Notes: generated by a model from the sequence alone, not told the origin. DNA of 64,000 nt from Candidatus Bathyarchaeota archaeon (GCA_963833575.1 CAWHXY010000001.1:5869-69868), one strand, 5' to 3'; shown: positions 10,923 to 23,970, numbered from the stretch's first letter. Numbers and translations: made by a program.

Positions 10923-13769
10923 ATGGGAACATTAAATCTTGACAAGATTTTCGACCCTCAAAGCGTAGCTATAGTCGGAGCCAGCGACGCGGAAGGATCA
11001 GTTGGGTACGCAATTGTTAAAAATTTTACCCAAATGGGTTACACCGGCAAAGTTTACTTTGTAAACATCCGAAAGCCTGAGATTTTGGGAGTTAAAACTT
11101 ACAAATCAGTTGACGAAATTCCAGAGCCCGTTGATTTAGTCATGATCGCCACGCCTGCAAAAACCGTTCCTGACGTTATGGAGGAATGTGGACGAGCAAA
11201 AGTTAAAGGTGTTATCATCGTATCTGCAGGTTTCAAAGAAACTGGTCCTGCAGGAAAAGCTTTGGAAGACAAAATCCTTGAAAGCGCCAAAAAATATGGA
11301 ATCCGAGTTATTGGTCCAAACTGCATCGGCATGATCCGACCCAGAGTAAACCTTAATGCCACTTTTTTAGACAAAATGCCTAAACCAGGCAATGTTGCTT
11401 TTCTATCTCAAAGCGGCGCTTTAGGCTCTGCAATTCTTGACTGGGCAATCCACGAAAACATCGGCTTTAGCAATTTTGTCTCAGTCGGCTCTATGATTGA
11501 CGTAGACTTTGGTGATCTGATTGATTATTTTGGTTCTGATCCAAAAACTAAAAGCATATTGATGTATGTTGAAGGCATAACTCAAGCACGCAAATTTATG
11601 AGTGCAGCAAGGCATTTTGCAAGAACCAAACCAATAATCGTAGTTAAATCAGGAAAATTCGCAGAAAGCGCAAAAGCAGCAGCTTCTCACACAGGTTCGC
11701 TTTCAGGCGAAGATGACATTTACGACGCAGCCTTCAAACGCGCCGGAATCGTTCGAGTCAACGAAATCGCTGATCTGTTTAATTCAGCTGAAGTTTTAGG
11801 AACACAGCCCCTACCTAAGGGTCCTAGGCTTGCCATAATAACTAATGCAGGTGGACCTGGAGTAATGGCAACTGACGCTTTGATCGGTCAAAACGGTAAA
11901 TTGGCTAAGTTAAGCCAAAAATCACTTGATGCACTTAACGCTGTCCTGCCTCCTTTCTGGAGTCACGGAAACCCAATTGATGTCTTAGGTGATGCAAAAT
12001 CTGAACGCTACAAAACTGCGTTAGACGTTTGCCTCAACGACGAAAACATCGATGGGATTCTAATTATTTTTACTCAACAAGCAGTTTCAGAATCGGTTGA
12101 AATAGCCAAAAACATTGTTGAACTTGTACGCAACAAATCTTACCAAAACAAAACAATCCTGACCTCGTTTATGGGATATGGCGCAGTGTTAGAAGCAAAC
12201 AGCATTCTGAACGCAAATAACATTCCAACCTATTCAACTCCTGAACAAGCAATCAAGACATACATGTACATGTATGAATACCAACGCAACATCGATCTTC
12301 TATACGAAACCCCTGAAGAGTTGCCAGTTGACGCTTCACCACCCAAACGCCCAATCATGGTAATATTAAGAAACGCAGCGTTCGAGGGTCGAGAAGTCTT
12401 AACTGAAGATGAAGCTAAAAAAATACTCAAATATTATAATTTCCCAATAGTAAGGACTGCAGCTGCAAACAACGTGGAAGAAGCAGTTACATTTGCCCAA
12501 GAAATGGGCTTCCCAGTCGTACTAAAAATTCTGTCACCCCAAATCGTCCATAAAACTGACGCAGGCGGAGTAATCCTAAACATTAACTCACCAAACGAAG
12601 TCCGCGAAGCCTTCGAGGTTCTAATACAAAGGGCCACAGCGTACAATCCAACCGCCCAAATAATCGGCGTCACGGTTCAACCCATGATCGAAAAGAAAGG
12701 GCAAGAAATAATTATCGGTGGAAAAACCGACCCAGTTTTCGGACCCGTAATACTGTTCGGTATGGGCGGCGTAGGAGTAGAACTCTTCAAAGATTATTCA
12801 ATTGGTCTTCCGCCATTGAATACAACACTTATTCATCGGATGATGGAAGAAACTAAAATTTACCGCTTACTCAAAGGGTACAGAGGTTCACCTGCAGTTG
12901 ACCTTAAAAAACTCGACGAAACTCTGCTGCTTTTCTCTCAATTACTTGTTGATTTCCCGCAAATAAAAGAAATTGATATTAACCCAATGTTAATCAGCGA
13001 AAAAGAAGCATGCATACTTGATGCTCGCATTGTAATTGACAAAGATGCGGTTTGCCATAAATTTGATCCACACGAGCACATGGTCATTAGCCCTTATCCA
13101 AAAAAAGACGAAATTCTGTGGCAACTGAAAAACGGTCAAGAAGTCATGCTTCGCCCCATAAAACCAGAAGATGAACCTATGTGGCTGGAAATGTTCCAAA
13201 GCTTCTCCGAAGAATCCATACGATACCGGTTCTTCCAAATGCTCAAAGATACCCCGCATGAAGTCCGTGTCCGCTACTGCAACGTCGATTATGACCGAGA
13301 AGTCGCCATTGTTTCCGAAATGGATGAAAATGGTAAAAGGAAAATACTTGGTGTAGCTCGCGTTAGCCTCGAATCTGATGGAAGAAGCAGTGAAATGGCC
13401 TTCATTGTAAGCGACTACTGGCAGGGTTTAGGTTTAGGCACTAAAATGGTTGATTACGTGCTTGATCTCGCAAAAGAAAAAGGCGTTGAAAACGTCTACG
13501 CAATTATGCTACCTGACAACTACAGAGCTTTGAGCCTGACAAAGAAAATGGGTTTCACAATTGAATACTTAAGCGATGGCACTGTCAAAGCATCACTTAA
13601 CCTGAAAAACGAAGACGTTGATTCAAGATGTCCAGTTATAAGCCCGGTCATTGGTCCAGTTATAACGTTGCCTGAACCTCCACGTGAGCAACCTGAGCAG
13701 ATAATTACAGCGGTACGAGAAGAAAAGAAAAAGGAATCTAAAGCACAGCGAGAGCTAACACCGGCGTAA
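10923..13769 (+). CDS. Acetate-CoA ligase (ADP-forming) alpha+beta fusion with C-terminal GNAT domain
   Basis: CoA-binding SVAIVGAS, IGPNCIG, SQSGA, ASHTGSL (phospho-His), ATP-grasp HKTDAGGV, EIDINP, then GNAT with WQGLGLGT. Confidence 0.92.
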   Translation: MGTLNLDKIFDPQSVAIVGASDAEGSVGYAIVKNFTQMGYTGKVYFVNIRKPEILGVKTYKSVDEIPEPVDLVMIATPAKTVPDVMEECGRAKVKGVIIVSAGFKETGPAGKALEDKILESAKKYGIRVIGPNCIGMIRPRVNLNATFLDKMPKPGNVAFLSQSGALGSAILDWAIHENIGFSNFVSVGSMIDVDFGDLIDYFGSDPKTKSILMYVEGITQARKFMSAARHFARTKPIIVVKSGKFAESAKAAASHTGSLSGEDDIYDAAFKRAGIVRVNEIADLFNSAEVLGTQPLPKGPRLAIITNAGGPGVMATDALIGQNGKLAKLSQKSLDALNAVLPPFWSHGNPIDVLGDAKSERYKTALDVCLNDENIDGILIIFTQQAVSESVEIAKNIVELVRNKSYQNKTILTSFMGYGAVLEANSILNANNIPTYSTPEQAIKTYMYMYEYQRNIDLLYETPEELPVDASPPKRPIMVILRNAAFEGREVLTEDEAKKILKYYNFPIVRTAAANNVEEAVTFAQEMGFPVVLKILSPQIVHKTDAGGVILNINSPNEVREAFEVLIQRATAYNPTAQIIGVTVQPMIEKKGQEIIIGGKTDPVFGPVILFGMGGVGVELFKDYSIGLPPLNTTLIHRMMEETKIYRLLKGYRGSPAVDLKKLDETLLLFSQLLVDFPQIKEIDINPMLISEKEACILDARIVIDKDAVCHKFDPHEHMVISPYPKKDEILWQLKNGQEVMLRPIKPEDEPMWLEMFQSFSEESIRYRFFQMLKDTPHEVRVRYCNVDYDREVAIVSEMDENGKRKILGVARVSLESDGRSSEMAFIVSDYWQGLGLGTKMVDYVLDLAKEKGVENVYAIMLPDNYRALSLTKKMGFTIEYLSDGTVKASLNLKNEDVDSRCPVISPVIGPVITLPEPPREQPEQIITAVREEKKKESKAQRELTPA

Positions 13770-13996: not shown

Positions 13997-14488
13997 TTGA
14001 CTGAGAAAGATAAAAGACGTTTGTTGCTTGAAAAAGTTATGAAAGAACATAATTATCAAGAAAGCGCTCTTCTTGAAATATTGCATCAAGCCCAAGAAAT
14101 CTATGGGTATCTAGATAGGGATCTGCTTATGGATATTTCCGGCTCTCTAAATCTTCCTCCTAGTCATGTATACGGCGTAACCACTTTCTACAGCTTCTTC
14201 AAACTCAAAAAACCAGGCCAACACATAGTGACAGGCTGCTTAGGAACTGCCTGCTACGTGAAAGATGTTGAACAAATCATAGAAGCAATCGAGGACAAAT
14301 TCGACCTTAAACGTGGCGGATCCACCGCAGATGGGAAGCTTTCTTTACTTATTACACGCTGCATAGGAGCCTGCGCTATGGCACCTAATATTGTCGTTGA
14401 TGGCGAAGTGATAGGCAAAGCCACAAAAGAAATAGTTATAGAAAAAATAGAAAACGTTCTTGGAGGAGTCAAAACTGAAACTCAGTGA
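13997..14488 (+). CDS. hoxE: Bidirectional NAD-linked hydrogenase diaphorase subunit HoxE (NuoE-like, [2Fe-2S])
   Basis: VYGVTTFYSFF, CLGTACYVK, RCIGACAMAP. Confidence 0.85.
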   Translation: MTEKDKRRLLLEKVMKEHNYQESALLEILHQAQEIYGYLDRDLLMDISGSLNLPPSHVYGVTTFYSFFKLKKPGQHIVTGCLGTACYVKDVEQIIEAIEDKFDLKRGGSTADGKLSLLITRCIGACAMAPNIVVDGEVIGKATKEIVIEKIENVLGGVKTETQ

Positions 14489-16127
14489 TCTTCAAAAAAT
14501 AACAGAGCAAGAACTTGATTTCCAAAGAGGTTACAAATACCGAATTAACGTATGTTGCTCAAGCGGCTGCGTTCCTTTCGGTGCCTTCAAAGTTCTTAAA
14601 GCATTCGAGGATGCAGTTAAAGAATTTGGTCTAGAAAATGAATGCAAAGTTGCACGTACAGGCTGTGTAGGCACCTGTTCGGTTGCTCCAGTAGTGCTAA
14701 TAGAACCTGGCGATTACCTCTACCAGAGTGTTACTCCTGAAAGCGCGCGAGAAATAGTCCGCGATCACATAGTTTTAGGATTACCCGCAAAAGATATGCT
14801 CTATAAGAACCAAGCATACTTCCAAAAACAGCATCGGCTTGTCCTACGGAACGCAGGAAAAATTGATCCTTCAAGAATTCAAGATTATATTTCTGCAGGT
14901 GGCTACTCGGCTTTAGCCAAATGCCTTGCAACCATGACACAGCAGGGAGTAATTTATGAGGTTATGGTAAGTGGGCTTAGAGGTCGCGGAGGCGCAGGTT
15001 TCCCGACAGGCCAAAAATGGACGCTGGTCTCAAGAGCGCACAGCGCTCCAAAATATATAGTTGCCAATTTAGATGAAGGAGATCCAGGCGTTTTCGCCAA
15101 CAGAACTCTGGCAGAAGCTGATCCACACGCCATCATTGAAGGCATGCTTATCGCGGCTTATGCCGTCGGTTCAGAGAAAGGTTACATTTACATTAGATCT
15201 GAGTATCCATTAGCTATTCAAACGTTACAGAAGGCTATTTCCCAAGCTAAAGCAATGACATTTCTTGGCGATAACATTTTAGAGACCCCCTTCAAGTTTG
15301 ATCTTGAACTACGATTCGGGGCAGGCGCATTTGTAGCTGGAGAAGAAACAGCTATTCTTGCCTCTGTCGAAGGTCGTAGAGCCATGCCTCGTCCGCGCCC
15401 TCCATACCCAGCAAACTCTGGATTATGGCAGAAGCCAACGCTTATACAAAACGTTGAAACCTTAGCAAACATACCGCTCATCATACAAAACGGTGGCTTA
15501 TGGTTCTCAAAAATAGGCACACCAAAATGTAGCGGAACCAAATGTTTCTCTTTAACAGGCAAAGTAAACAATCCGGGCTTAATTGAAGTTCCAATGGGAA
15601 TTACACTCAAAGAAGTAGTGTTTGAAATCGGCGGCGGAGTTCCAGAGGGAAGAAAATTCAAGTCAGTTCTAGTCGGGGGACCCTCAGGCGGTTGTCTACC
15701 TGAAACTTTTCTTGAAATTCCAATAGACTATGACTCATTAACAAAAGTCGGAGCAATAATGGGGTCAGGCGGAATTGTAGTGCTCGACGACGAATCATGT
15801 ATGGTTGACACAGCGAGATTCTTCACTGAGTTCTGTAATGATGAATCATGCGGCAAATGCACTCCCTGCAGAGCAGGATTAGCCCGAGTTAAAGAAATTT
15901 ACGATCAAATTACAAGCGGCAACGGAAAAATGGAAGACATTACTACTTTGGAGAAATCTGGAGTTTTCATAAGAGACGCAAGCCTTTGTGGTCTTGGACA
16001 AACAGCTCCAAACCCAGTAATAACCACTCTTCGATACTTCAAAGATGAATACATAAAACACATCGTCGATAAAAAATGTGAAGCAGGAAAGTGCTTCAAC
16101 AAAAAGAGGGAGGAAGAACGAAGTTGA
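14460..16127 (+). CDS. hoxF: Diaphorase subunit HoxF (NuoF-like, FMN/NADH)
   Basis: N-terminal [2Fe-2S] thioredoxin-like domain (CCSSGC, GCVGTC), SGLRGRGGAGFPTG, DEGDPG, GAGAFVAGEETA, ESCGKCTPCR, SLCGLGQ. Confidence 0.9.
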   Translation: MEESKLKLSDLQKITEQELDFQRGYKYRINVCCSSGCVPFGAFKVLKAFEDAVKEFGLENECKVARTGCVGTCSVAPVVLIEPGDYLYQSVTPESAREIVRDHIVLGLPAKDMLYKNQAYFQKQHRLVLRNAGKIDPSRIQDYISAGGYSALAKCLATMTQQGVIYEVMVSGLRGRGGAGFPTGQKWTLVSRAHSAPKYIVANLDEGDPGVFANRTLAEADPHAIIEGMLIAAYAVGSEKGYIYIRSEYPLAIQTLQKAISQAKAMTFLGDNILETPFKFDLELRFGAGAFVAGEETAILASVEGRRAMPRPRPPYPANSGLWQKPTLIQNVETLANIPLIIQNGGLWFSKIGTPKCSGTKCFSLTGKVNNPGLIEVPMGITLKEVVFEIGGGVPEGRKFKSVLVGGPSGGCLPETFLEIPIDYDSLTKVGAIMGSGGIVVLDDESCMVDTARFFTEFCNDESCGKCTPCRAGLARVKEIYDQITSGNGKMEDITTLEKSGVFIRDASLCGLGQTAPNPVITTLRYFKDEYIKHIVDKKCEAGKCFNKKREEERS

Positions 16128-16831
16128 GCTTATCAACTGTTAAGCTTACCATTGATGGCGTTGAAATAACCGTTCCTGAAGGCACAACTATTCTGGAAGC
16201 TGCCAAGGACAACGGCATAATAATACCTACATTATGTAATCTTGAAGGCTTAACTGCTTATGGGGGCTGTCGCCTTTGTCTCGTGGAAGTTAGCGGTTCA
16301 CCAAAACTTTTCCCCGCTTGCACTACACCCGTAGGTCCAAATATAGAAGTTACAACCAATTCAGACAGACTTAAAGACTATCGTAAAATGGTTGTCCAGA
16401 TGCTTCTTGCCGAGCGAACTCACATATGCTCAGTTTGTGTAGCCAACGACCATTGCGAACTCCAAGCTATGGCAAACCAACTCGGAGTGGACCATGTCAT
16501 GTTCGAGCGAAACTGGAGCAGGGACCCAATTGATTCCACTCATGACTTCTTAGTAATTGACCGCAACCGATGTATTTTGTGTACTCGATGCATACGTGTC
16601 TGCGACCAAATTGAAGGGGTTCATACACTGGACCTCAAACTAAGGGGAAAAGATACTCAAGTGATAATGGATCTTGATGAGAACTGGGCTAATTCTTGTT
16701 CTTGCACTTCATGCCGCAAATGCGCTAAAGTTTGCCCTGTAGGCGCAATATATATTGAGGGAGAGCAAATCGCACAAACAAAACGTAAAGATATAGCTGA
16801 GTTTATCTTGACAAGGAGGAACCGCAAATGA
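16124..16831 (+). CDS. hoxU: Diaphorase subunit HoxU
   Basis: IPTLC...GGCRLC...ACT, H.CSVCVANDHCELQ, CILCTRC, CTSCRKCAKVCPVGA. Start set at TTG 16124 (TTGA overlap with hoxF stop). Confidence 0.9.
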   Translation: MSLSTVKLTIDGVEITVPEGTTILEAAKDNGIIIPTLCNLEGLTAYGGCRLCLVEVSGSPKLFPACTTPVGPNIEVTTNSDRLKDYRKMVVQMLLAERTHICSVCVANDHCELQAMANQLGVDHVMFERNWSRDPIDSTHDFLVIDRNRCILCTRCIRVCDQIEGVHTLDLKLRGKDTQVIMDLDENWANSCSCTSCRKCAKVCPVGAIYIEGEQIAQTKRKDIAEFILTRRNRK

Positions 16832-17364
16832 CAGAAAAAGTTAGAGTCGCCACAATTTGGCTTAGCGGCTGCTCAGGTTGCCACATGTCATTTCTAGATC
16901 AAGATGAACGTCTTGTTGATTTATCGCAGAAAATTCAGTTGGTTTATAGCCCAATCATGGACATTAAAAAGTTCCCAGAAAACGTCGATGTAACCTTAGT
17001 CGAGGGTGCCGTAGCCAACGAGGAACAGCTAACTACGCTTAAAAATGCAAGAACAAATACGAAAATCTTGATTTCGCTTGGTGACTGCGCTGTAACAGGA
17101 AACGTCACCGCACTGCGCAATGCTTGGCCTCATAGTGACAAAGAAATCTTAAATAGAGCTTACCTAGACGAATCTGACTTAAACCCTCAGCTACCAGACC
17201 AAATGCCTAAACTGCTGCTAAAAGCTCACCCGCTTCACGAAGCAGTTAACGTTGACTTTTTCATTCCCGGTTGTCCACCCCACGCCGATCTGATTAACTA
17301 TGTGTTAACTGAGTTATTGGCCGGCAGAACGCCAAAGATGGAAGGTAGATCAAAATATGGTTAA
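16828..17364 (+). CDS. hoxY: [NiFe] hydrogenase small subunit HoxY
   Basis: WLSGCSGCHMSFLD, EGAV, GDCAVTGNV, IPGCPP; short, proximal cluster only. Confidence 0.9.
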   Translation: MTEKVRVATIWLSGCSGCHMSFLDQDERLVDLSQKIQLVYSPIMDIKKFPENVDVTLVEGAVANEEQLTTLKNARTNTKILISLGDCAVTGNVTALRNAWPHSDKEILNRAYLDESDLNPQLPDQMPKLLLKAHPLHEAVNVDFFIPGCPPHADLINYVLTELLAGRTPKMEGRSKYG

Positions 17365-18799
17365 TGAACAAAAAAGTAAACAAATCGTAATTGCCCCAAT
17401 TACAAGGATTGAGGGACATGCACAAGTAACTATTTTCTTAAAAGACGACGATACGGTGAGAGAGGCACGATTCCAAGTTACTGACTTTAGAGGTTTCGAG
17501 AAATTCACTGAAGGCAGACCATTCTATGAGATGCCAAGTATCACTTCAAGATCCTGCGGAATCTGTCCAGTTAGTCACCTGCTTGCTTCAGCCAAAGCCT
17601 GCGACGCTATCGTCGGCGTTAACCCGCCAAAAACGGCTATAATGCTAAGGCGCTTAATGCATATGGGGCAACTAATCCAATCACACGCCTTGAACTTCTT
17701 TCACCTCTCATCACCCGATCTATTGTTAGGCTTTGATTCAGATCCAGGGCAAAGAAACATTTTCGGCTTAATTGAAAAACAGCCAGAACTAGCCATGCGA
17801 GGCATCAAACTTCGAAAGTTCGGTCAGGAACTTATAGAAAAAATAGCTGGTAAACGAATACATTCAAGCGACTGGATACTGCCCGGAGGAGCAAAATGGC
17901 CACTCACGCAAGAAAGAGCCGACTACCTCTGCGCCAATCTACCTGAAGCTTTAGCGAGTACGCAAGAGACGTTGGTGATGTACAAGAAGATGCTGGACGG
18001 GTTTGAAGAAGAAGTTGGAAACTTCGGTAACTTCCCAACTTATTATATGGGTTTAGTTACAGCTGACGGAGGACTTGAACACTACGACGGAAAAATTCGC
18101 ATAATGGACAAGAACGGCAAAACGGCTGCTGAATGCGTTGATCCAAAAAAATATAACGAATTTATTTGCGAAGCCGTTGAACCATGGTCTTTCATGAAGT
18201 TTCCATACTTCAAAACCGTTGGTTACCCAGATGGAGCCTACAGAGTTGGACCCTTGGCAAGATTAAATGTTGCTTCGCATTGTGATACACCTCTGGCTGA
18301 CCAAGAACTCAAGGAATTCAAGAAACTAGGCCAGAATGGCGTTGTGCAAAGCACATTCCACTACCATTACGCTCGCTTAATTGAGATGCTTTTCTGCCTT
18401 GAAACCGCCAAAAACCTGCTTGAAGACCCAGAAATTCTCTCTGAACACGTCACATCAAAAGCGTTAGTTAACAACTATGAAGGCGTCGGGGTAGCTGAAG
18501 CCCCAAGAGGGACCCTGATCCACCACTACAAAGTTGACCAACAAGGAATAATCACACGGAACAACATGATAATCGCCACAGAACACAACAACATCGCCTA
18601 CAACATGGCAGTAACACAAGTAGCCAAAAAATATGTTAAAGCACAACAGCTCCAAGAAGGCATGCTGAACCGCGTAGAAGCAGTAATCCGAGCATTCGAC
18701 CCATGCTTAAGTTGCGCAACTCATGCCGTTGGCAAAATGCCTTTAGAAATAAAATTAATCAATGCAGATGGTAAACTCGTTGACCGCAAAATAAGGTAA
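17357..18799 (+). CDS. hoxH: [NiFe] hydrogenase large subunit HoxH (group 3d-like)
   Basis: TRIEGH, RSCGICPVSH (L1), EAPRGTLIHHY, FDPCLSCATH (L2) plus cleavable C-terminal extension. Confidence 0.92.
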   Translation: MVNEQKSKQIVIAPITRIEGHAQVTIFLKDDDTVREARFQVTDFRGFEKFTEGRPFYEMPSITSRSCGICPVSHLLASAKACDAIVGVNPPKTAIMLRRLMHMGQLIQSHALNFFHLSSPDLLLGFDSDPGQRNIFGLIEKQPELAMRGIKLRKFGQELIEKIAGKRIHSSDWILPGGAKWPLTQERADYLCANLPEALASTQETLVMYKKMLDGFEEEVGNFGNFPTYYMGLVTADGGLEHYDGKIRIMDKNGKTAAECVDPKKYNEFICEAVEPWSFMKFPYFKTVGYPDGAYRVGPLARLNVASHCDTPLADQELKEFKKLGQNGVVQSTFHYHYARLIEMLFCLETAKNLLEDPEILSEHVTSKALVNNYEGVGVAEAPRGTLIHHYKVDQQGIITRNNMIIATEHNNIAYNMAVTQVAKKYVKAQQLQEGMLNRVEAVIRAFDPCLSCATHAVGKMPLEIKLINADGKLVDRKIR

Positions 18800-19026
18800 A
18801 TCTATTTTTTATTGTTTCAAATATTTTTATATCTGCTTTCATCAGCCAGTGCTTTAAATCAAGTTTTCTTACAAAAAATATTTTTGCTTTCCATAATTTT
18901 CATATGAAAATGTCACATCCGATATGGCAGAATCATTTAAGCCTTGACTGAACCTTTATGTATTTGTCTTTGGAATTTGGAGTAAATAAGCACGTATGGT
19001 GCTACCTATCTGTCAAAGTGAACCTA

Positions 19027-19584
19027 TTGACTGAGACAGCAACAACTCCATCAGGCAAAGAGCCGATAAAAGCTTCTGAGCTAGACCCAAAATTCAAGTA
19101 TGAACTCCAGAAAATGCACGGAAGCGAAAAAATTCTTAAATGTTTTCAGTGCGGAACATGCACATCAGACTGCCCAGTTGCAAGGTACAGCGACAGTTAT
19201 CGTCCGAGAACATTGATTCATATGGCTCAACTTGGCCTTCGAGATCGAGTGCTAAAAAGCGAAACTTTATGGTTATGCGCAGCCTGTTTTACATGCACTG
19301 ATCGATGTCCACAAGACGTTGAAGTAGCAAGTGTTATTCGTGTATTTCGCAATTTAGCGATCGAAAATGGCTGTGTACCTCAAGTCTTTAAAGAACAAAC
19401 TGCATCCTTACTTGAATCAGGGTACGCTTACAAAATTCCTGAGTTAAGAATTAAAAAACGTGAATCCCAATGTTTGCCACCGCTGCCAAAAGGCAATGCG
19501 GAAAATGTCCGAAAAGTCCTCAAAGGTGTAAAATTCGTCGAAGCTGTCCAGAAACCAGCGGGAGGCCAACCAAGTGGGCAATAA
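19027..19584 (+). CDS. hdrC: Heterodisulfide reductase subunit C
   Basis: CFQCGTCTSDCP and WLCAACFTCTDRCPQ. Start uncertain (TTG 19027 preferred; track gives 18958). Confidence 0.88.
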   Translation: MTETATTPSGKEPIKASELDPKFKYELQKMHGSEKILKCFQCGTCTSDCPVARYSDSYRPRTLIHMAQLGLRDRVLKSETLWLCAACFTCTDRCPQDVEVASVIRVFRNLAIENGCVPQVFKEQTASLLESGYAYKIPELRIKKRESQCLPPLPKGNAENVRKVLKGVKFVEAVQKPAGGQPSGQ

Positions 19585-20467
19585 GTATCTTATTTTTCTC
19601 GGGTGTGCAATCCCCTATCGTGTTTCAGCTTACGAGATTTCTGCTCGCAAAGTCCTCGCTAAGTTAGGTGTTGAACTGGTTGAAATGCCAGAATTCAACT
19701 GTTGCGGTTTACCGTTAGATCCAGTAAGCCATGAAACTATGCTTATTTTAGCAGCAAAAAACTTGGCAATGGCTGAACAAACGGGACTAAACATTCTTAC
19801 GCTTTGTCCGGGCTGTGCTGGCACAATCAAGAAAGTCAACAAAATTCTGAAAGAGGACAAGGCACTTAAAGAGCAAATTAATGGGCACTTAAAAGAAGTA
19901 GGATTGGAATTCAAAGGAACCTTAGAAACAAAACATCTCCTTCAACTGCTCAAAGAGGATGTTGGGGTAGAAAAAATCAAAGCATCTGTCGTTAAACCTC
20001 TCAATATGCTTAAAGTCGCTGAACACAATGGTTGCCACATTCTTAGACCGAAAGAGTTTATTGGTTTTGATGATCCTGAAGATCCGCAAACATTAAAAAT
20101 GCTGATTGAAGCTACAGGCGCTACATGCTTAGATTACATCGATGAAACAGAATGCTGCGGAGCGCCAAGCGTCGGAGTAAGCGACAAAATTGCCCTGCAA
20201 CTTGCAAGAGACAAGTTAAATCACGTAAAAATGGTTGAAGCGCAAGCATTAATTACAATTTGTCCATTTTGCCACATAATGTATGATACAAACGAGTTGC
20301 GAATAGAGAAAATGTTTAAAGAAGCATATGGTATTCCAATTCTCCATTACCCACAGCTACTCGGGTTAGCAATGGGCTTAACACCTGAAGAATTAGCCTT
20401 CAACGAACTGCGTGTAAACGCATCAAAAATACTGGAACTAGTAAATAAGGAAGTAAACAAGCAATGA
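19574..20467 (+). CDS. hdrB: Heterodisulfide reductase subunit B
   Basis: FLGCAIP, FNCCG, TLCPGC, HNGCHILRP, ECCG, TICPFC: two CCG domains. Confidence 0.92.
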   Translation: MGNKYLIFLGCAIPYRVSAYEISARKVLAKLGVELVEMPEFNCCGLPLDPVSHETMLILAAKNLAMAEQTGLNILTLCPGCAGTIKKVNKILKEDKALKEQINGHLKEVGLEFKGTLETKHLLQLLKEDVGVEKIKASVVKPLNMLKVAEHNGCHILRPKEFIGFDDPEDPQTLKMLIEATGATCLDYIDETECCGAPSVGVSDKIALQLARDKLNHVKMVEAQALITICPFCHIMYDTNELRIEKMFKEAYGIPILHYPQLLGLAMGLTPEELAFNELRVNASKILELVNKEVNKQ

Positions 20468-21450
20468 GCGACAAATTAAAAATAGCCTTTTACTGGGCTG
20501 CAAGCTGCGGCGGCTGCGAAATAGCCGTCCTAGACTTAAACGAAAAAATCCTTGACGTAGTGGCATTAGCCGACATTGTTTTCTGGCCAGTAGCCATAGA
20601 CATCAAATACAAAGATGTCGAAGCAATGCCAGACAAATCCATAGATATTACATTCTTCAATGGATCAATCCGCAACTCAGAACAGGAACATATGGCAAAG
20701 GTGCTCAGAGAAAAATCCAAAACCCTTGTTGCTTTCGGTTCATGCGCTCACCAAGGAAGCGTACCCGGATTAGCAAACCTAAACGACAAAAAAGAAATTT
20801 TCGATCAAGTATACATGAAAGACTTATCCAACGTAAATCCAAAATCAACCACCCCTCAAACTCAAACCAAAGTCAAAGAAGGCACCCTCAACATCCCCGA
20901 ATTCTACGACACAGTAAAAACTCTGGCACAAACAGTAGATGTAGACTATTATCTTCCAGGTTGCCCACCACCAGTCAAACTAATCGCCGCTGCAGTTGAA
21001 GCGATAAAGTGCAACAAACTTCCACCAAAAGGATCGGTACTTGCACCGCTCAAAGCAGTATGCGACGAATGCCCAAGAAAACGAGAAAACAAAAAAATCG
21101 GCAAAATCTACCGAGTTTATGATAAAACACCAGAACCAGAAAAATGTCTTCTAGAACAAGGCATTCTCTGTCTCGGTCTCGCAACCAGAAGCGGCTGCGG
21201 TGCTCAATGCTTAAATGTTGACATGCCATGCACAGGTTGCGGTGGACCAGCTCCAAACGTTCCAGATCAAGGAGCAGCAATGATGTCTGCTTTAGCTTCA
21301 ATTCTCGGATACGATGGAGAACCAGGAAAAACCAAATATACAGAGAAAGAGATTGAAGAATTATTGAGCCAAGTGAAAGATCCAGTTGGCACATTCTTCA
21401 TGTATAGTTTACCCGCATCGATTCTTAAAAGAAAGGTGATTAAAAAATGA
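20464..21450 (+). CDS. mvhG: F420-non-reducing [NiFe] hydrogenase small subunit
   Basis: WAASCGGCE, AFGSCA, LPGCPP, VCDECP, CLLEQGILCLG, SGCGAQC, PCTGCGG. Confidence 0.9.
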   Translation: MSDKLKIAFYWAASCGGCEIAVLDLNEKILDVVALADIVFWPVAIDIKYKDVEAMPDKSIDITFFNGSIRNSEQEHMAKVLREKSKTLVAFGSCAHQGSVPGLANLNDKKEIFDQVYMKDLSNVNPKSTTPQTQTKVKEGTLNIPEFYDTVKTLAQTVDVDYYLPGCPPPVKLIAAAVEAIKCNKLPPKGSVLAPLKAVCDECPRKRENKKIGKIYRVYDKTPEPEKCLLEQGILCLGLATRSGCGAQCLNVDMPCTGCGGPAPNVPDQGAAMMSALASILGYDGEPGKTKYTEKEIEELLSQVKDPVGTFFMYSLPASILKRKVIKK

Positions 21451-22901
21451 AAGAAATAATCATAGATCCTATCACCCGTCTTGAAGGACATGGAAACGTA
21501 TCCATATTCCTCAATGACAAAGGTGATGTAGAAAACGCCTATCTTAAAATTCCAGAATTAAGAGGGTTCGAGAAATTCTGCATTGGCAGAAAAGCTGAAC
21601 TCATGCCTCAACTCACTTCCAGAATCTGTGGCGTCTGCCCAGTTGCACACCATTTTGCGGCAACAAAAGCTTTAGACGCAGCATTCAACGTTGAACCACC
21701 ATCAGCTGCTAAGAAACTGCGCGAACTAATGTACAGTGCTTACTACATTTACGATCACACATTACACTTTTACTATCTTGGCGGACCAGACTTCATAGTT
21801 GGGCCCGATGCTCCACCAGAAAAACGAAACATACTCGGAGTAATAGAAAAAGCCGGTATGCCAGTTGCAAAGGAAGTCATAAAACACAGAGCTTACGGAC
21901 AAAGAATAACCGAAATCATCGGCGGAAAAGCAACCCACCCAGTCTGCGGACTACCGGGCGGAATGTCAAAAGCATTAACTGAACCTAACAGGCAAGAAAT
22001 CGAGACAATGGCTGCCTCATGCGTAAACTTCGCCCAGTTCACACTTAAACTCTTCCATGATATCGTCTTAGGCAACACCCAATATGTTGACATGATTAAG
22101 AGCCAAGCCTACACCATGCCAACTTATTACATGGGGACAGTTGATCAAAACAACAAAGTTAACTTCTATGACGGTAAAATCCGTGTTGTAGATCCAACTG
22201 GCAATGAATTCCTCAAATTCGAATCAAAAGATTACCTGCAGCATATCGGTGAACATGTTGAAGAATGGACATATAGCAAATTCCCATACCTTAAAGCAAT
22301 TGGCTGGAAAGGACAAGTTTCAGGCGCGGACAGCGGTGTCTACCGAGTTGGTCCACTTGCAAGGTTAAATGCATCGGACGGTATGGCAACACCCCTTGCA
22401 CAAGCAGAATATGAAGTCATGTACAAGACTCTCGGCGGCAAACCAGTCCACAGCACTTTAGCCTATCACTGGGCACGCCTAATTGAATTACTCTATGCAA
22501 CAGAAAGAGCAATGGAGTTAGTCAAAGACCCAGAAATTACAAGCACAAACATCCGCAATAAACCAGGCGAACCAACCGAAGGCGTCGGCATCACAGAAGC
22601 AGCAAGAGGCACACTCATCCACCACTACAAATTAGACAAAGACGCCCTAATCAAAGACGTAAACCTAATCGTCGCCACAACAAACAATTACCCAGCTATT
22701 TGCATGAGCATACGCGACGCAGCCAAAGGCTTAATACACGACGGCAAAGTTGACCAAGGCATATTAAACAAAGTCGAAATGGGTTTCCGAGCCTACGACC
22801 CCTGCTTCGGATGCGCAACACACGCAGCAGTTGGACAAATGCCACTCACCGTCGAAGTCTACAACTCTCAAAAACAATTAGTCAGCTCAGTATCTCGCTA
22901 A
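21447..22901 (+). CDS. mvhA: F420-non-reducing [NiFe] hydrogenase large subunit (group 3c-like)
   Basis: IDPITRLEGHG, ELRGFEKF, RICGVCPVAH, EAARGTLIHHY, YDPCFGCATH plus extension. Confidence 0.92.
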   Translation: MKEIIIDPITRLEGHGNVSIFLNDKGDVENAYLKIPELRGFEKFCIGRKAELMPQLTSRICGVCPVAHHFAATKALDAAFNVEPPSAAKKLRELMYSAYYIYDHTLHFYYLGGPDFIVGPDAPPEKRNILGVIEKAGMPVAKEVIKHRAYGQRITEIIGGKATHPVCGLPGGMSKALTEPNRQEIETMAASCVNFAQFTLKLFHDIVLGNTQYVDMIKSQAYTMPTYYMGTVDQNNKVNFYDGKIRVVDPTGNEFLKFESKDYLQHIGEHVEEWTYSKFPYLKAIGWKGQVSGADSGVYRVGPLARLNASDGMATPLAQAEYEVMYKTLGGKPVHSTLAYHWARLIELLYATERAMELVKDPEITSTNIRNKPGEPTEGVGITEAARGTLIHHYKLDKDALIKDVNLIVATTNNYPAICMSIRDAAKGLIHDGKVDQGILNKVEMGFRAYDPCFGCATHAAVGQMPLTVEVYNSQKQLVSSVSR

Positions 22902-23019
22902 GCTAACCCATTTTTTAGGAAATTTCTCTTTTTCAATTTATTCTACAAAACCCCTAACGTTTTAGGGTAAACTCTTATCTTAACACACCGCCCTATTGTT
23001 TTGTTAGCTGAGATTTGAC

Positions 23020-23379
23020 ATGCAACCGCAACCACCTAATCCAGAACATAAAAGAATGAAACGAGAGAAAAAAACAATAGGCTATATGGTTGACATATAT
23101 TGCAAAGGACACCACGACACTCAGGGTGAACTCTGTTCTGAATGCAAAGAATTCAAAGAATACGCATTCATGCGTCTTGACAAATGTCCATTTCAAGACA
23201 AGAAGAGCACGTGCGGGAAATGCGTTATACACTGCTACAGACCAGACATGAAAGAAAAAGTGAAAAAAGTTATGCGTTATTCGGGTCCACGGATGCTTCT
23301 GCCTCACCCAACTCTAGCGTTGCATCACGCTTGGGATAGCCACAGGAAGGCACCTAAGCTGGCCAAGAAAACAAACTAA
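23020..23379 (+). CDS. YgbA-like (nitrous oxide-stimulated promoter family) Cys-rich protein
   Basis: REKKTI..MV.IYC..HH, C.EC, RLDKCPF...K..C.KC..HCY, VMRYSGPRML. Confidence 0.85.
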   Translation: MQPQPPNPEHKRMKREKKTIGYMVDIYCKGHHDTQGELCSECKEFKEYAFMRLDKCPFQDKKSTCGKCVIHCYRPDMKEKVKKVMRYSGPRMLLPHPTLALHHAWDSHRKAPKLAKKTN

Positions 23380-23484
23380 TTAATTCTGCCGCAAAGCTCC
23401 GTTGAATGCAATTTTTTTGAATAGACTTTGCTGTGACAAGCTTTTTCTGTCCTCGAGGCTTATTTTCTAATTATTGGTGCTTCC

Positions 23485-23970
23485 ATGAGTGACAGAATCG
23501 AAAAAGATCTAGCAAACTGGTTTGTTGGTGCAACGAAGGTCGTTCTAGCTGGCATTGGCAACCCAATCCGCACCGATGACTACGTTGGATTACACATCGT
23601 TGAACAATTGAGGGGCAAGTTGCCCGAAAACGTTTGCTTGCTGGAAGCTGAGACGGTTCCAGAAAGCTACCTGTTAGATATAGAAATGTTTCATCCATCG
23701 CATGTCCTCTTGATTGATGCTGCTTTCTTGGGTTTGAAGCCCGGTGAAGCCAACCTTGTTGATCCTGTGAATATTGAAGATTATTCTGCCGTAACAACTC
23801 ATTTGTTACCATTGCGGATTTTCTGCGACTACATTAAACAGGCAACAGGTGCAAAAATTGCTTCTCTTCTGATCGAACCCAAAAGCATGGAGTTTGGTGA
23901 AGGCTTAACCGTGGAAGTTCAAACTGCTGCTGAGCGGTTAATAAAAACATTGGCTAATTTGCTTGGCTAG
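23485..23970 (+). CDS. hycI: Hydrogenase maturation endopeptidase
   Basis: GIGNPIRTDDYVG, ETVPE, LLIDAA, TTHLLPL. Confidence 0.88.
   Translation: MSDRIEKDLANWFVGATKVVLAGIGNPIRTDDYVGLHIVEQLRGKLPENVCLLEAETVPESYLLDIEMFHPSHVLLIDAAFLGLKPGEANLVDPVNIEDYSAVTTHLLPLRIFCDYIKQATGAKIASLLIEPKSMEFGEGLTVEVQTAAERLIKTLANLLG

Follow-up and report, generated by a model that had tools for sequence, protein, structure and literature searches.

A coupled hdrCB-mvhGA cassette beside a Hox hydrogenase in a Bathyarchaeia genome, with its HdrA::MvhD core probably encoded in trans

The stretch of DNA analysed here (the window) comprises 64,000 nucleotides, C1:5869-69868, from the metagenome-assembled genome (MAG) of a Candidatus Bathyarchaeota archaeon (GCA_963833575.1, class Bathyarchaeia; here G000). 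The genome amounts to 2.75 Mb in 8 contigs and is 94% complete; contig C1 is 78 kb long. Genes were called from an open reading frame (ORF) listing combined with Pfam and NCBIfam profile scans of the window, and these bore out the arrangement read from the DNA in an initial annotation: the hydrogenase cluster hoxEFUYH is followed, after a gap, by hdrC-hdrB-mvhG-mvhA and the gene for a HycI-type maturation protease, all on the plus strand (Table 1). The scans added a ygbA-like gene between mvhA and the protease gene. The hdr-mvh genes encode parts of an H2-driven heterodisulfide reductase of the MvhADG-HdrABC kind, and neither hdrA nor mvhD stands among them. With a probability of roughly three in four, we consider this cassette a self-standing unit for the MvhAG and HdrBC arms of a flavin-based bifurcating [NiFe]-hydrogenase:heterodisulfide reductase of the canonical type, the core of which, a fused HdrA::MvhD protein, would be supplied in trans. 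This reading is built on gene content, synteny, co-occurrence in related genomes, cofactor motifs and conserved promoter-like elements, from which assembly of the complex, bifurcation and the limits of the transcripts are inferred.

Table 1. Features of the hox-hdr-mvh region (window coordinates) and of hdr, mvh and related loci on other contigs of the same genome
Feature	Position	Strand	Evidence or remark
hoxE, NuoE-like 2Fe-2S diaphorase subunit	13997..14488	+	PF01257 1.9e-41; NF005747 197.6 bits
hoxF, NuoF-like FMN/NAD(H) subunit with N-terminal 2Fe-2S domain	14460..16127	+	PF01512, PF10589, PF01257
hoxU, truncated NuoG-like iron-sulfur (FeS) subunit	16091..16831	+	NCBIfam HoxU NF005745 312 bits
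hoxY, short [NiFe] small subunit, 178 aa	16828..17364	+	PF01058
hoxH, [NiFe] large subunit	17357..18799	+	PF00374
T6 tract, putatively archaeal terminator-like	18805..18810	+	read from sequence; 6 nt past hoxH stop
B recognition element (BRE)/TATA-like element CTGAAC-CTTTATGTA	18948..18962	+	lies ~70 nt before hdrC; columns invariant in alignment A1
Palindrome AGCAC-N5-GTGCT	18989..19003	+	predicted 5' leader of hdrC
hdrC, 2x[4Fe-4S]	19027..19584	+	TIGR03290 3.8e-34; orthologs 185-187 aa; upstream alignment; probable TTG start
hdrB, two CCG domains	19574..20467	+	TIGR03288 281 bits; PF02754 x2
mvhG, group 3c small subunit, three FeS-cluster Cys sets	20464..21450	+	5odc_E 233 bits
mvhA, group 3c [NiFe] large subunit	21447..22901	+	NCBIfam VhuA 429.8 bits
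ygbA-like Cys-rich small protein	23020..23379	+	PF11756 4.1e-43; between mvhA and protease
HycI-type hydrogenase maturation endopeptidase	23485..23970	+	TIGR00142/TIGR00072
Complete canonical operon hdrA-hdrC-hdrB-mvhD-mvhG-mvhA	C3:26857-33204
hdrB-hdrC-x-polyferredoxin-hdrA::mvhD	C3:46161-51732
Orphan polyferredoxin + hdrA::mvhD fusion	C6:208648-212048		neither hdrBC nor hydrogenase nearby
408-aa protein in which two MvhD (FlpD) domains alternate with 2x[4Fe-4S] motifs	C4:484932-488381		beside NfnA/PyrK-like and GltD/NfnB-like genes

The cassette genes interlock closely. An 11-nt overlap joins hdrC to hdrB and a 4-nt overlap joins mvhG to mvhA, and the reported overlap of the hdrB stop with the mvhG start likewise measures 4 nt. 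Although the longest hdrC ORF opens at 18958, the true start is most likely the TTG at 19027, because the orthologs begin ATGACTGAG at the point where the window reads TTGACTGAG. With this start, the non-coding gap between hoxH and hdrC (18800-19026) is 227 bp long, inside the range of roughly 160-230 bp first estimated. The encoded subunits retain the expected cofactor motifs. HdrB keeps all 10 CCG cysteines and matches 9sfi_C at 236 bits and 5odc_B at 222 bits; the alignment of MvhG to 5odc_E is full-length and matches the cluster cysteines, those of the medial and distal clusters included; and MvhA carries RICGVCPVAH and DPCFGCATH, motifs of the N-terminal RxCGxC and C-terminal DPCxxCxxH types, respectively. 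The single maturation protease noted after mvhA is indeed there, and it is the only HycI-family gene of the genome (one PF01750 match genome-wide), but it does not follow mvhA directly, as the ygbA-like ORF, a member of the 'nitrous oxide-stimulated promoter' family, intervenes. The absence of hdrA and mvhD from the operon holds for the entire contig: a genome search placed no HdrA on C1, and a profile search found no MvhD/FlpD (PF02662) domain anywhere on it.

Elsewhere in the genome both components are present, which supports the earlier suggestion that they act in trans. A genome-wide profile search retrieved three HdrA genes and five PF02662 matches, all of them off C1, with MvhD domains occurring mainly as the C-terminus of HdrA. 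The orphan fusion on contig C6 is collinear with the HdrA chain 5odc_A (814 bits, residues 19-667) and then with the MvhD chain 5odc_D (120 bits, 670-803); the parts lacking in the window cassette are thus exactly the parts orphaned on C6. Contig C3 carries a complete canonical operon, the products of which are 81% (MvhA), 72% (MvhG), 46% (HdrB) and 37% (HdrC) identical to the window copies, as well as a second fusion gene near hdrBC. Mis-binning of C3 was considered, as the same-genus genome G027 is without the extra C3 hdr/mvh sets, and is disfavoured: the last ~5 kb of C3 (56881-62092) are 100% identical to the end of C6 (346300-351511), so that the two contigs probably join and C3 probably belongs to the genome. 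The two hdrA::mvhD copies (C3:48335-51732 and C6:208648-212048) are 97.5% identical, whereas the adjacent polyferredoxins share only 65%, a contrast that suggests gene conversion.

Relatives of the cassette were collected by a scan with one genome per species, which returned 80 loci (MvhA identity 84-96%) labelled almost exclusively as Bathyarchaeia and originating from peat, bog, fen and Danish soils. In a few cases, contigs bearing the cassette at 85-96% identity are filed under Acidoferrum, Limnocylindrales, Acidiferrales and Methanocella MAGs (L006, L041, L072 and L079), labels that probably reflect binning errors in public records. The order hdrC-hdrB-mvhG-mvhA was seen in every locus reaching far enough upstream, with the protease in most loci and the ygbA-like gene in about half. 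Synteny across the Bathyarchaeia, raised as a check in the initial annotation, therefore turned out to be conserved for the cassette and not for its neighbour: hoxEFUYH is adjacent in only 19 of the 80 loci. Unrelated genes, often on the opposite strand, stand upstream in another 43; a type II double HdrA (~1007 aa) and a free mvhD lie directly upstream in 10; and 8 loci are too short for a call. In deeper relatives (L062, L063, L067-L069, L072, L074-L076, L078 and L100-L103), tandem HdrA/MvhD clusters were seen directly upstream of hdrCB-mvhGA; they comprise long MvhD variants of ~255-275 aa, HdrA split into halves of ~440 and ~570 aa, and the type II double HdrA of ~1007 aa.

Eight genomes with the truncated cassette (G001-3, G006-8, G015 and G016, two of which are closed chromosomes, OY970280.1 and OY970286.1, the latter being G008) were profiled for HdrB (E≤1e-20) and HdrA (E≤1e-30). 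Each contains exactly one HdrB, located in the cassette, and exactly one HdrA, a fusion of ~820-840 residues with MvhD at its C-terminus; no free MvhD was found in the eight. Where cassette and fusion lie on one contig, 170 kb to about 850 kb separate them, and the fusion is in every case preceded by a polyferredoxin of ~311 residues and has no hdrBC neighbour. When the survey was extended to 44 further cassette-bearing genomes, the fusion was present in 43 and was the only HdrA match in 31 of these, bringing the tally to 51 of 52 cassette-bearing relatives, at a locus unlinked to the cassette. Within a family sample of 61 genomes from 55 genera, G027 (100% complete) and seven other genera likewise have one HdrA and one cassette. 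In other lineages the two halves are neighbours: hdrC-hdrB orthologs with 81% and 75% identity adjoin polyferredoxin-hdrA::mvhD in G071 and G066, and hdrB immediately precedes hdrA::mvhD in G017. Because neither component has another partner in the profiled genomes, and because they stand side by side in some lineages, one complex encoded at two loci would be the parsimonious explanation.

The history of the locus points the same way. Deeper relatives have the order hdrA(type II)-mvhD-hdrC-hdrB-mvhG-mvhA, and in a tree of MvhG plus MvhA, rooted on the C3 paralog of the window genome, the hdrA-mvhD-linked loci are basal. Since the cassettes lacking both genes form one supported clade (support 99, 54 rows), hdrA-mvhD appears to have left the operon once, on a single branch, and the truncated cassette to have been stably inherited afterwards. 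Adjacency to Hox, on the other hand, is confined to an inner subclade of 39 rows, at least five changes are forced even on well-supported branches, and the nearest relative of the window (L006, 96% identity) is not hox-adjacent.

Indeed, the cassette appears not to need Hox at all, as the same four genes are found in Hox-free genomes or with Hox far away. HoxH was not detected in G006, G007 or the closed chromosome of G008, all of which carry the cassette without hdrA and mvhD, nor in several genomes with the hdrA-mvhD-linked form. Hox lies 1.1 Mb from the cassette in G003; HoxH is ~8 kb away in G015 and G016, with other genes and strand switches in between, and is frameshifted in G011. From these comparisons, Hox looks dispensable for the cassette and its adjacency phylogenetically labile. 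The slot upstream of hdrC, bounded on its far side by a conserved ACD-GNAT fusion gene (window 10923-13769, 948 aa), is occupied either by hoxEFUYH or, at L006, L007, L073, L082 and L085, by a group 3b-like hydrogenase encoded on the opposite strand, with a 442-residue large subunit, a 245-residue small subunit and a fused beta/gamma subunit of ~640 residues. The region resembles a hydrogenase island of variable content, and G001 has all three hydrogenases in one cluster.

The gap between hoxH and hdrC contains sequence elements that recur among relatives. Besides the T6 tract just past hoxH, a TATA-like box was found at -66 to -80 relative to hdrC in 15 of 20 hox-linked and ~20 of 43 unlinked loci, and a palindrome of the form GCAC-N4-7-GTGC at -32 to -44 in 14/20 and 30/43 (44/63 in total), its stem constant and its spacer variable; the palindrome may be bound by a regulator or fold into a 5' hairpin. 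Neither element is present in the 10 loci in which mvhD abuts hdrC. Because box and palindrome recur at fixed distances in hox-linked and unlinked loci alike, the cassette seems to possess its own conserved promoter-like region whatever stands upstream, and a working promoter there is a reasonable expectation. An Rfam scan of the intergenic region gave no family match, only sub-threshold chance matches, and a scan for sigma-70 promoters and intrinsic terminators, models unsuited to an archaeon, gave counts not above those of shuffled sequences.

On this basis, the cassette system is most likely an ordinary H2-driven heterodisulfide reductase split over two loci and merely situated beside Hox. 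According to the proposed mechanism, hdrC-hdrB-mvhG-mvhA(-ygbA)-hycI would form its own transcription unit and supply the arms stoichiometrically, MvhAG for oxidation of H2 and HdrBC for reduction of the disulfide. The central module would be provided in trans by the polyferredoxin and the type Ia HdrA, with MvhD on its C-terminus, encoded on C6, and the subunits would assemble into one complex. Electrons from H2 would pass through MvhA and the three MvhG clusters to the [2Fe-2S] cluster of the fused MvhD and on to the HdrA FAD, where the pair would be split: one electron would pass through HdrC, reach the non-cubane clusters of HdrB and end on a (hetero)disulfide, and the other would travel via the clusters of the HdrA ferredoxin domain to ferredoxin or polyferredoxin. 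Reduced ferredoxin would plausibly feed the Wood-Ljungdahl pathway, a role that Loh et al. (PMC7886697) put forward for Bathy-6. CdhA is present in the window genome, a non-methanogenic Wood-Ljungdahl context. Because hdrCB is co-operonic with mvhGA, H2 rather than F420H2 is suggested as donor; if the model is right, the type Ia HdrA would serve a group 3c hydrogenase.

Several observations weigh against this proposal. The canonical hdrACB-mvhDGA operon on C3 brings its own HdrA and MvhD, which could equally serve the cassette. Since almost all genomes of the family have the fusion, among them some that lack the cassette, co-occurrence by itself does not discriminate. HdrA was not detected in two cassette-bearing MAGs, G052 (95% complete, 60 contigs) and G078, and the type Ia enzyme known from biochemistry takes F420H2 and ferredoxin as donors and not a hydrogenase. 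The familiar substrate is also in question: as the genome search found no McrA, and the organism thus has no methyl-coenzyme M reductase, CoM-S-S-CoB is unlikely to be the disulfide reduced. Co-regulation, finally, found no backing in a search for an operator common to the cassette promoter and that of polyferredoxin-hdrA::mvhD, which returned none. The initial annotation had described an ordinary split operon as one with a co-regulated hdrA-mvhD locus elsewhere and hox transcribed independently; the locus elsewhere and the promoter-like elements of the cassette agree with that picture.

Two further ideas put forward with the initial annotation, and one more, have to be set against the trans arrangement. 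A minimal soluble H2:disulfide oxidoreductase, in which the distal cluster of MvhG would pass electrons straight to HdrC in an exergonic, non-bifurcating reaction without HdrA or MvhD, would account for the persistence of four coupled genes together, in the absence of hdrA and mvhD, across a clade comprising no fewer than 54 species and for the two MAGs without detectable HdrA. Both exceptions are fragmented assemblies, however, and such an enzyme would strand the sole HdrA, itself an MvhD fusion, without an HdrBC partner in the eight profiled genomes. Moreover, deeper relatives keep hdrA and mvhD in one operon with their orthologous cassettes, hdrCB orthologs adjoin the fusion gene in three genera, and MvhG retains the canonical three-cluster architecture that feeds MvhD; we therefore regard this idea as unlikely and not supported by the comparisons. 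MvhAG might instead dock on the 2xMvhD-ferredoxin protein encoded on C4, leaving HdrBC to be served separately by HdrA::MvhD, as two co-expressed enzymes. A two-FlpD protein of this kind, ~405-435 aa, occurs in every relative examined and is the only MvhD-domain protein in G052, but no neighbourhood link ties it to the cassette. A single complex is favoured both by the tight translational coupling of hdrB to mvhG and by the ancestral gene order, hdrA-mvhD-hdrCB-mvhGA, and we regard such separate docking as very unlikely. Taken jointly, a stand-alone non-bifurcating MvhAG-HdrBC and an MvhAG docked on alternative MvhD modules (for example, 2xMvhD-ferredoxin/NfnAB-like) have a low probability; if either were true, it would explain why the cassette persists in G052 and G078.

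That HoxEFU might supply the flavin module in place of HdrA and MvhD, giving a Hox-Hdr-Mvh supercomplex linking NAD(H), H2 and a heterodisulfide in the manner of FlxABCD, was suggested by the direct adjacency in the window and in the 19 loci, and the sole HycI protease common to both clusters and the similarity of HoxF and HoxH to a bifurcating hydrogenase (7t2r; see below) speak for it too. Set against this, genomes that have no Hox, a closed chromosome among them, carry the intact cassette, and in G003 1.1 Mb lie between it and Hox; adjacency is restricted to one subclade and repeatedly lost; and the closest relatives, L006 and L007, hold an opposite-strand group 3b-like hydrogenase in the slot. 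The T6 tract past hoxH, the promoter-like region of the cassette and the absence from HoxF of the 2x[4Fe-4S] domain found at the C-terminus of bifurcating HydB count against it as well, and we hold a supercomplex of this kind to be extremely improbable. An HdrA::MvhD core in trans thus remains the preferred reading.

The Hox cluster itself has the features of group 3d: the hoxE-F-U-Y-H gene set in that order, a short HoxY and a NuoEFG-like diaphorase. Equivalog scores for HoxE and HoxU fall slightly under the cut-offs (197.6 vs 224 and 312 vs 333), and HoxH carries RSCGICPVSH and DPCLSCATH together with a C-terminal extension of 24 residues. The best solved-structure matches of HoxF and HoxH are to NiFe-HydABCSL of Acetomicrobium mobile (7T2R). 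HoxF aligns to 7t2r_B at 658 bits (query 25-545, chain 4-536 of 597), and HoxH scores 545 bits against 7t2r_D and 457 bits against 5xf9_D. These matches raised the possibility of a bifurcating HydABCSL, which was rejected: HydB of A. mobile ends in a C-terminal domain of ~60 residues, whereas HoxF continues for only ~10 residues, with 2 Cys, past the aligned core, and both the alignment to 7t2r_B and the sequence show no C-terminal 2x[4Fe-4S] domain. As HoxF is without this two-cluster domain, it looks non-bifurcating, and the cluster is better read as encoding a plain NAD(P)-linked Hox of the group 3d type.

Hox is probably a separate hydrogenase in the variable slot upstream of the cassette, with only the HycI protease common to both. 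One HycI-family protease was found in each genome examined, with the exception of two in G052, and the C-terminal extensions of HoxH and MvhA are alike (GKMPLEIKLINADGKLV vs GQMPLTVEVYNSQKQLV); the sole functional tie between hox and the cassette that these data suggest is maturation. In G000, G001, G003, G008 and G027, the single HycI protease faces two or three [NiFe] large subunits, each bearing a C-terminal extension, and in G001 it is encoded ~1 Mb from the cassette.

Compared with known systems, every subunit type and cofactor motif of MvhADG-HdrABC from Methanothermococcus thermolithotrophicus (5ODC; related 8RVU, 9SW2 and 9SFI) is also found here. The differences are that MvhD is fused to HdrA rather than encoded with the hydrogenase, and that the genes are partitioned into {hdrC, hdrB, mvhG, mvhA} and {polyferredoxin, hdrA::mvhD}. 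A published classification of HdrA (PMC12054007) already includes type Ia, which is fused to MvhD, and type II, which is double. A two-locus split is not unusual either: in Methanosarcina acetivorans, hdrA2, which encodes an MvhD fusion and forms an operon with a polyferredoxin gene, is distant from hdrC2B2, and the proteins nonetheless form an active complex (PMC5296606, Yan et al. 2017). HdrA2B2C2 thus shares with the present system the C-terminal MvhD, the polyferredoxin neighbour and the unlinked hdrCB; however, hdrC2B2 stand alone, whereas hdrCB here is translationally coupled to a group 3c hydrogenase and accompanied by its protease. What is new is this gene order, with hdrCB joined to mvhGA and the protease in one operon; it is a gene-order variant of a known system, and no new kind of enzyme or complex is revealed.

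In sulfate reducers, FlxABCD links NAD(H) to HdrABC. There, FlxD (MvhD-like) and HdrA are encoded with the NAD(H) module; neither is found in or beside the window hox genes. The hoxEFUYH cluster of Bathy-6 Bathyarchaeia, the same five genes in the same archaeal class as the window, has been published, with HoxH sister to bacterial Hox, and the accessible part of that paper contains no description of hdrCB-mvhGA adjacency or of a trans HdrA::MvhD (Loh et al. 2021, PMC7886697).

Abundant and uncultured, the Bathyarchaeia of soil and peat have been proposed to live as acetogens that use H2. The source of their low-potential ferredoxin matters for models of carbon flow in peat. If the proposed arrangement is correct, their main group 3c hydrogenase/Hdr system would be complete although the operon looks truncated, and annotation pipelines would miss it where MvhADG-HdrABC is scored by the completeness of an operon. 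The clean partition over two loci, with the peripheral arms HdrBC and MvhAG at one and the HdrA::MvhD core at the other, also lends itself to heterologous reconstitution, and a reconstituted system could be used to seek the disulfide substrate of Hdr in non-methanogens.

Two additional observations concern related genes. The HdrA::MvhD genes of L089 6141-8714 (G016:C6), G015:C6 and G005:C3 contain two in-frame TGA codons at conserved cysteine positions, in the contexts TLDCSI[TGA]IEGP within HdrA and MCNW[TGA]GYAGAD within the MvhD domain, which suggests that the fusion of these soil Bathyarchaeia is a selenoprotein with two selenocysteines. The window genome also encodes a second NuoE/NuoF/NuoG-like set (C4:887078-890954), consisting of a 150-residue protein, a 640-residue NuoF with a C-terminal extension and a 496-residue protein whose C-terminal half is FrhB-like; this set may represent a flavin module of the bifurcating type that has no relation to Hox.

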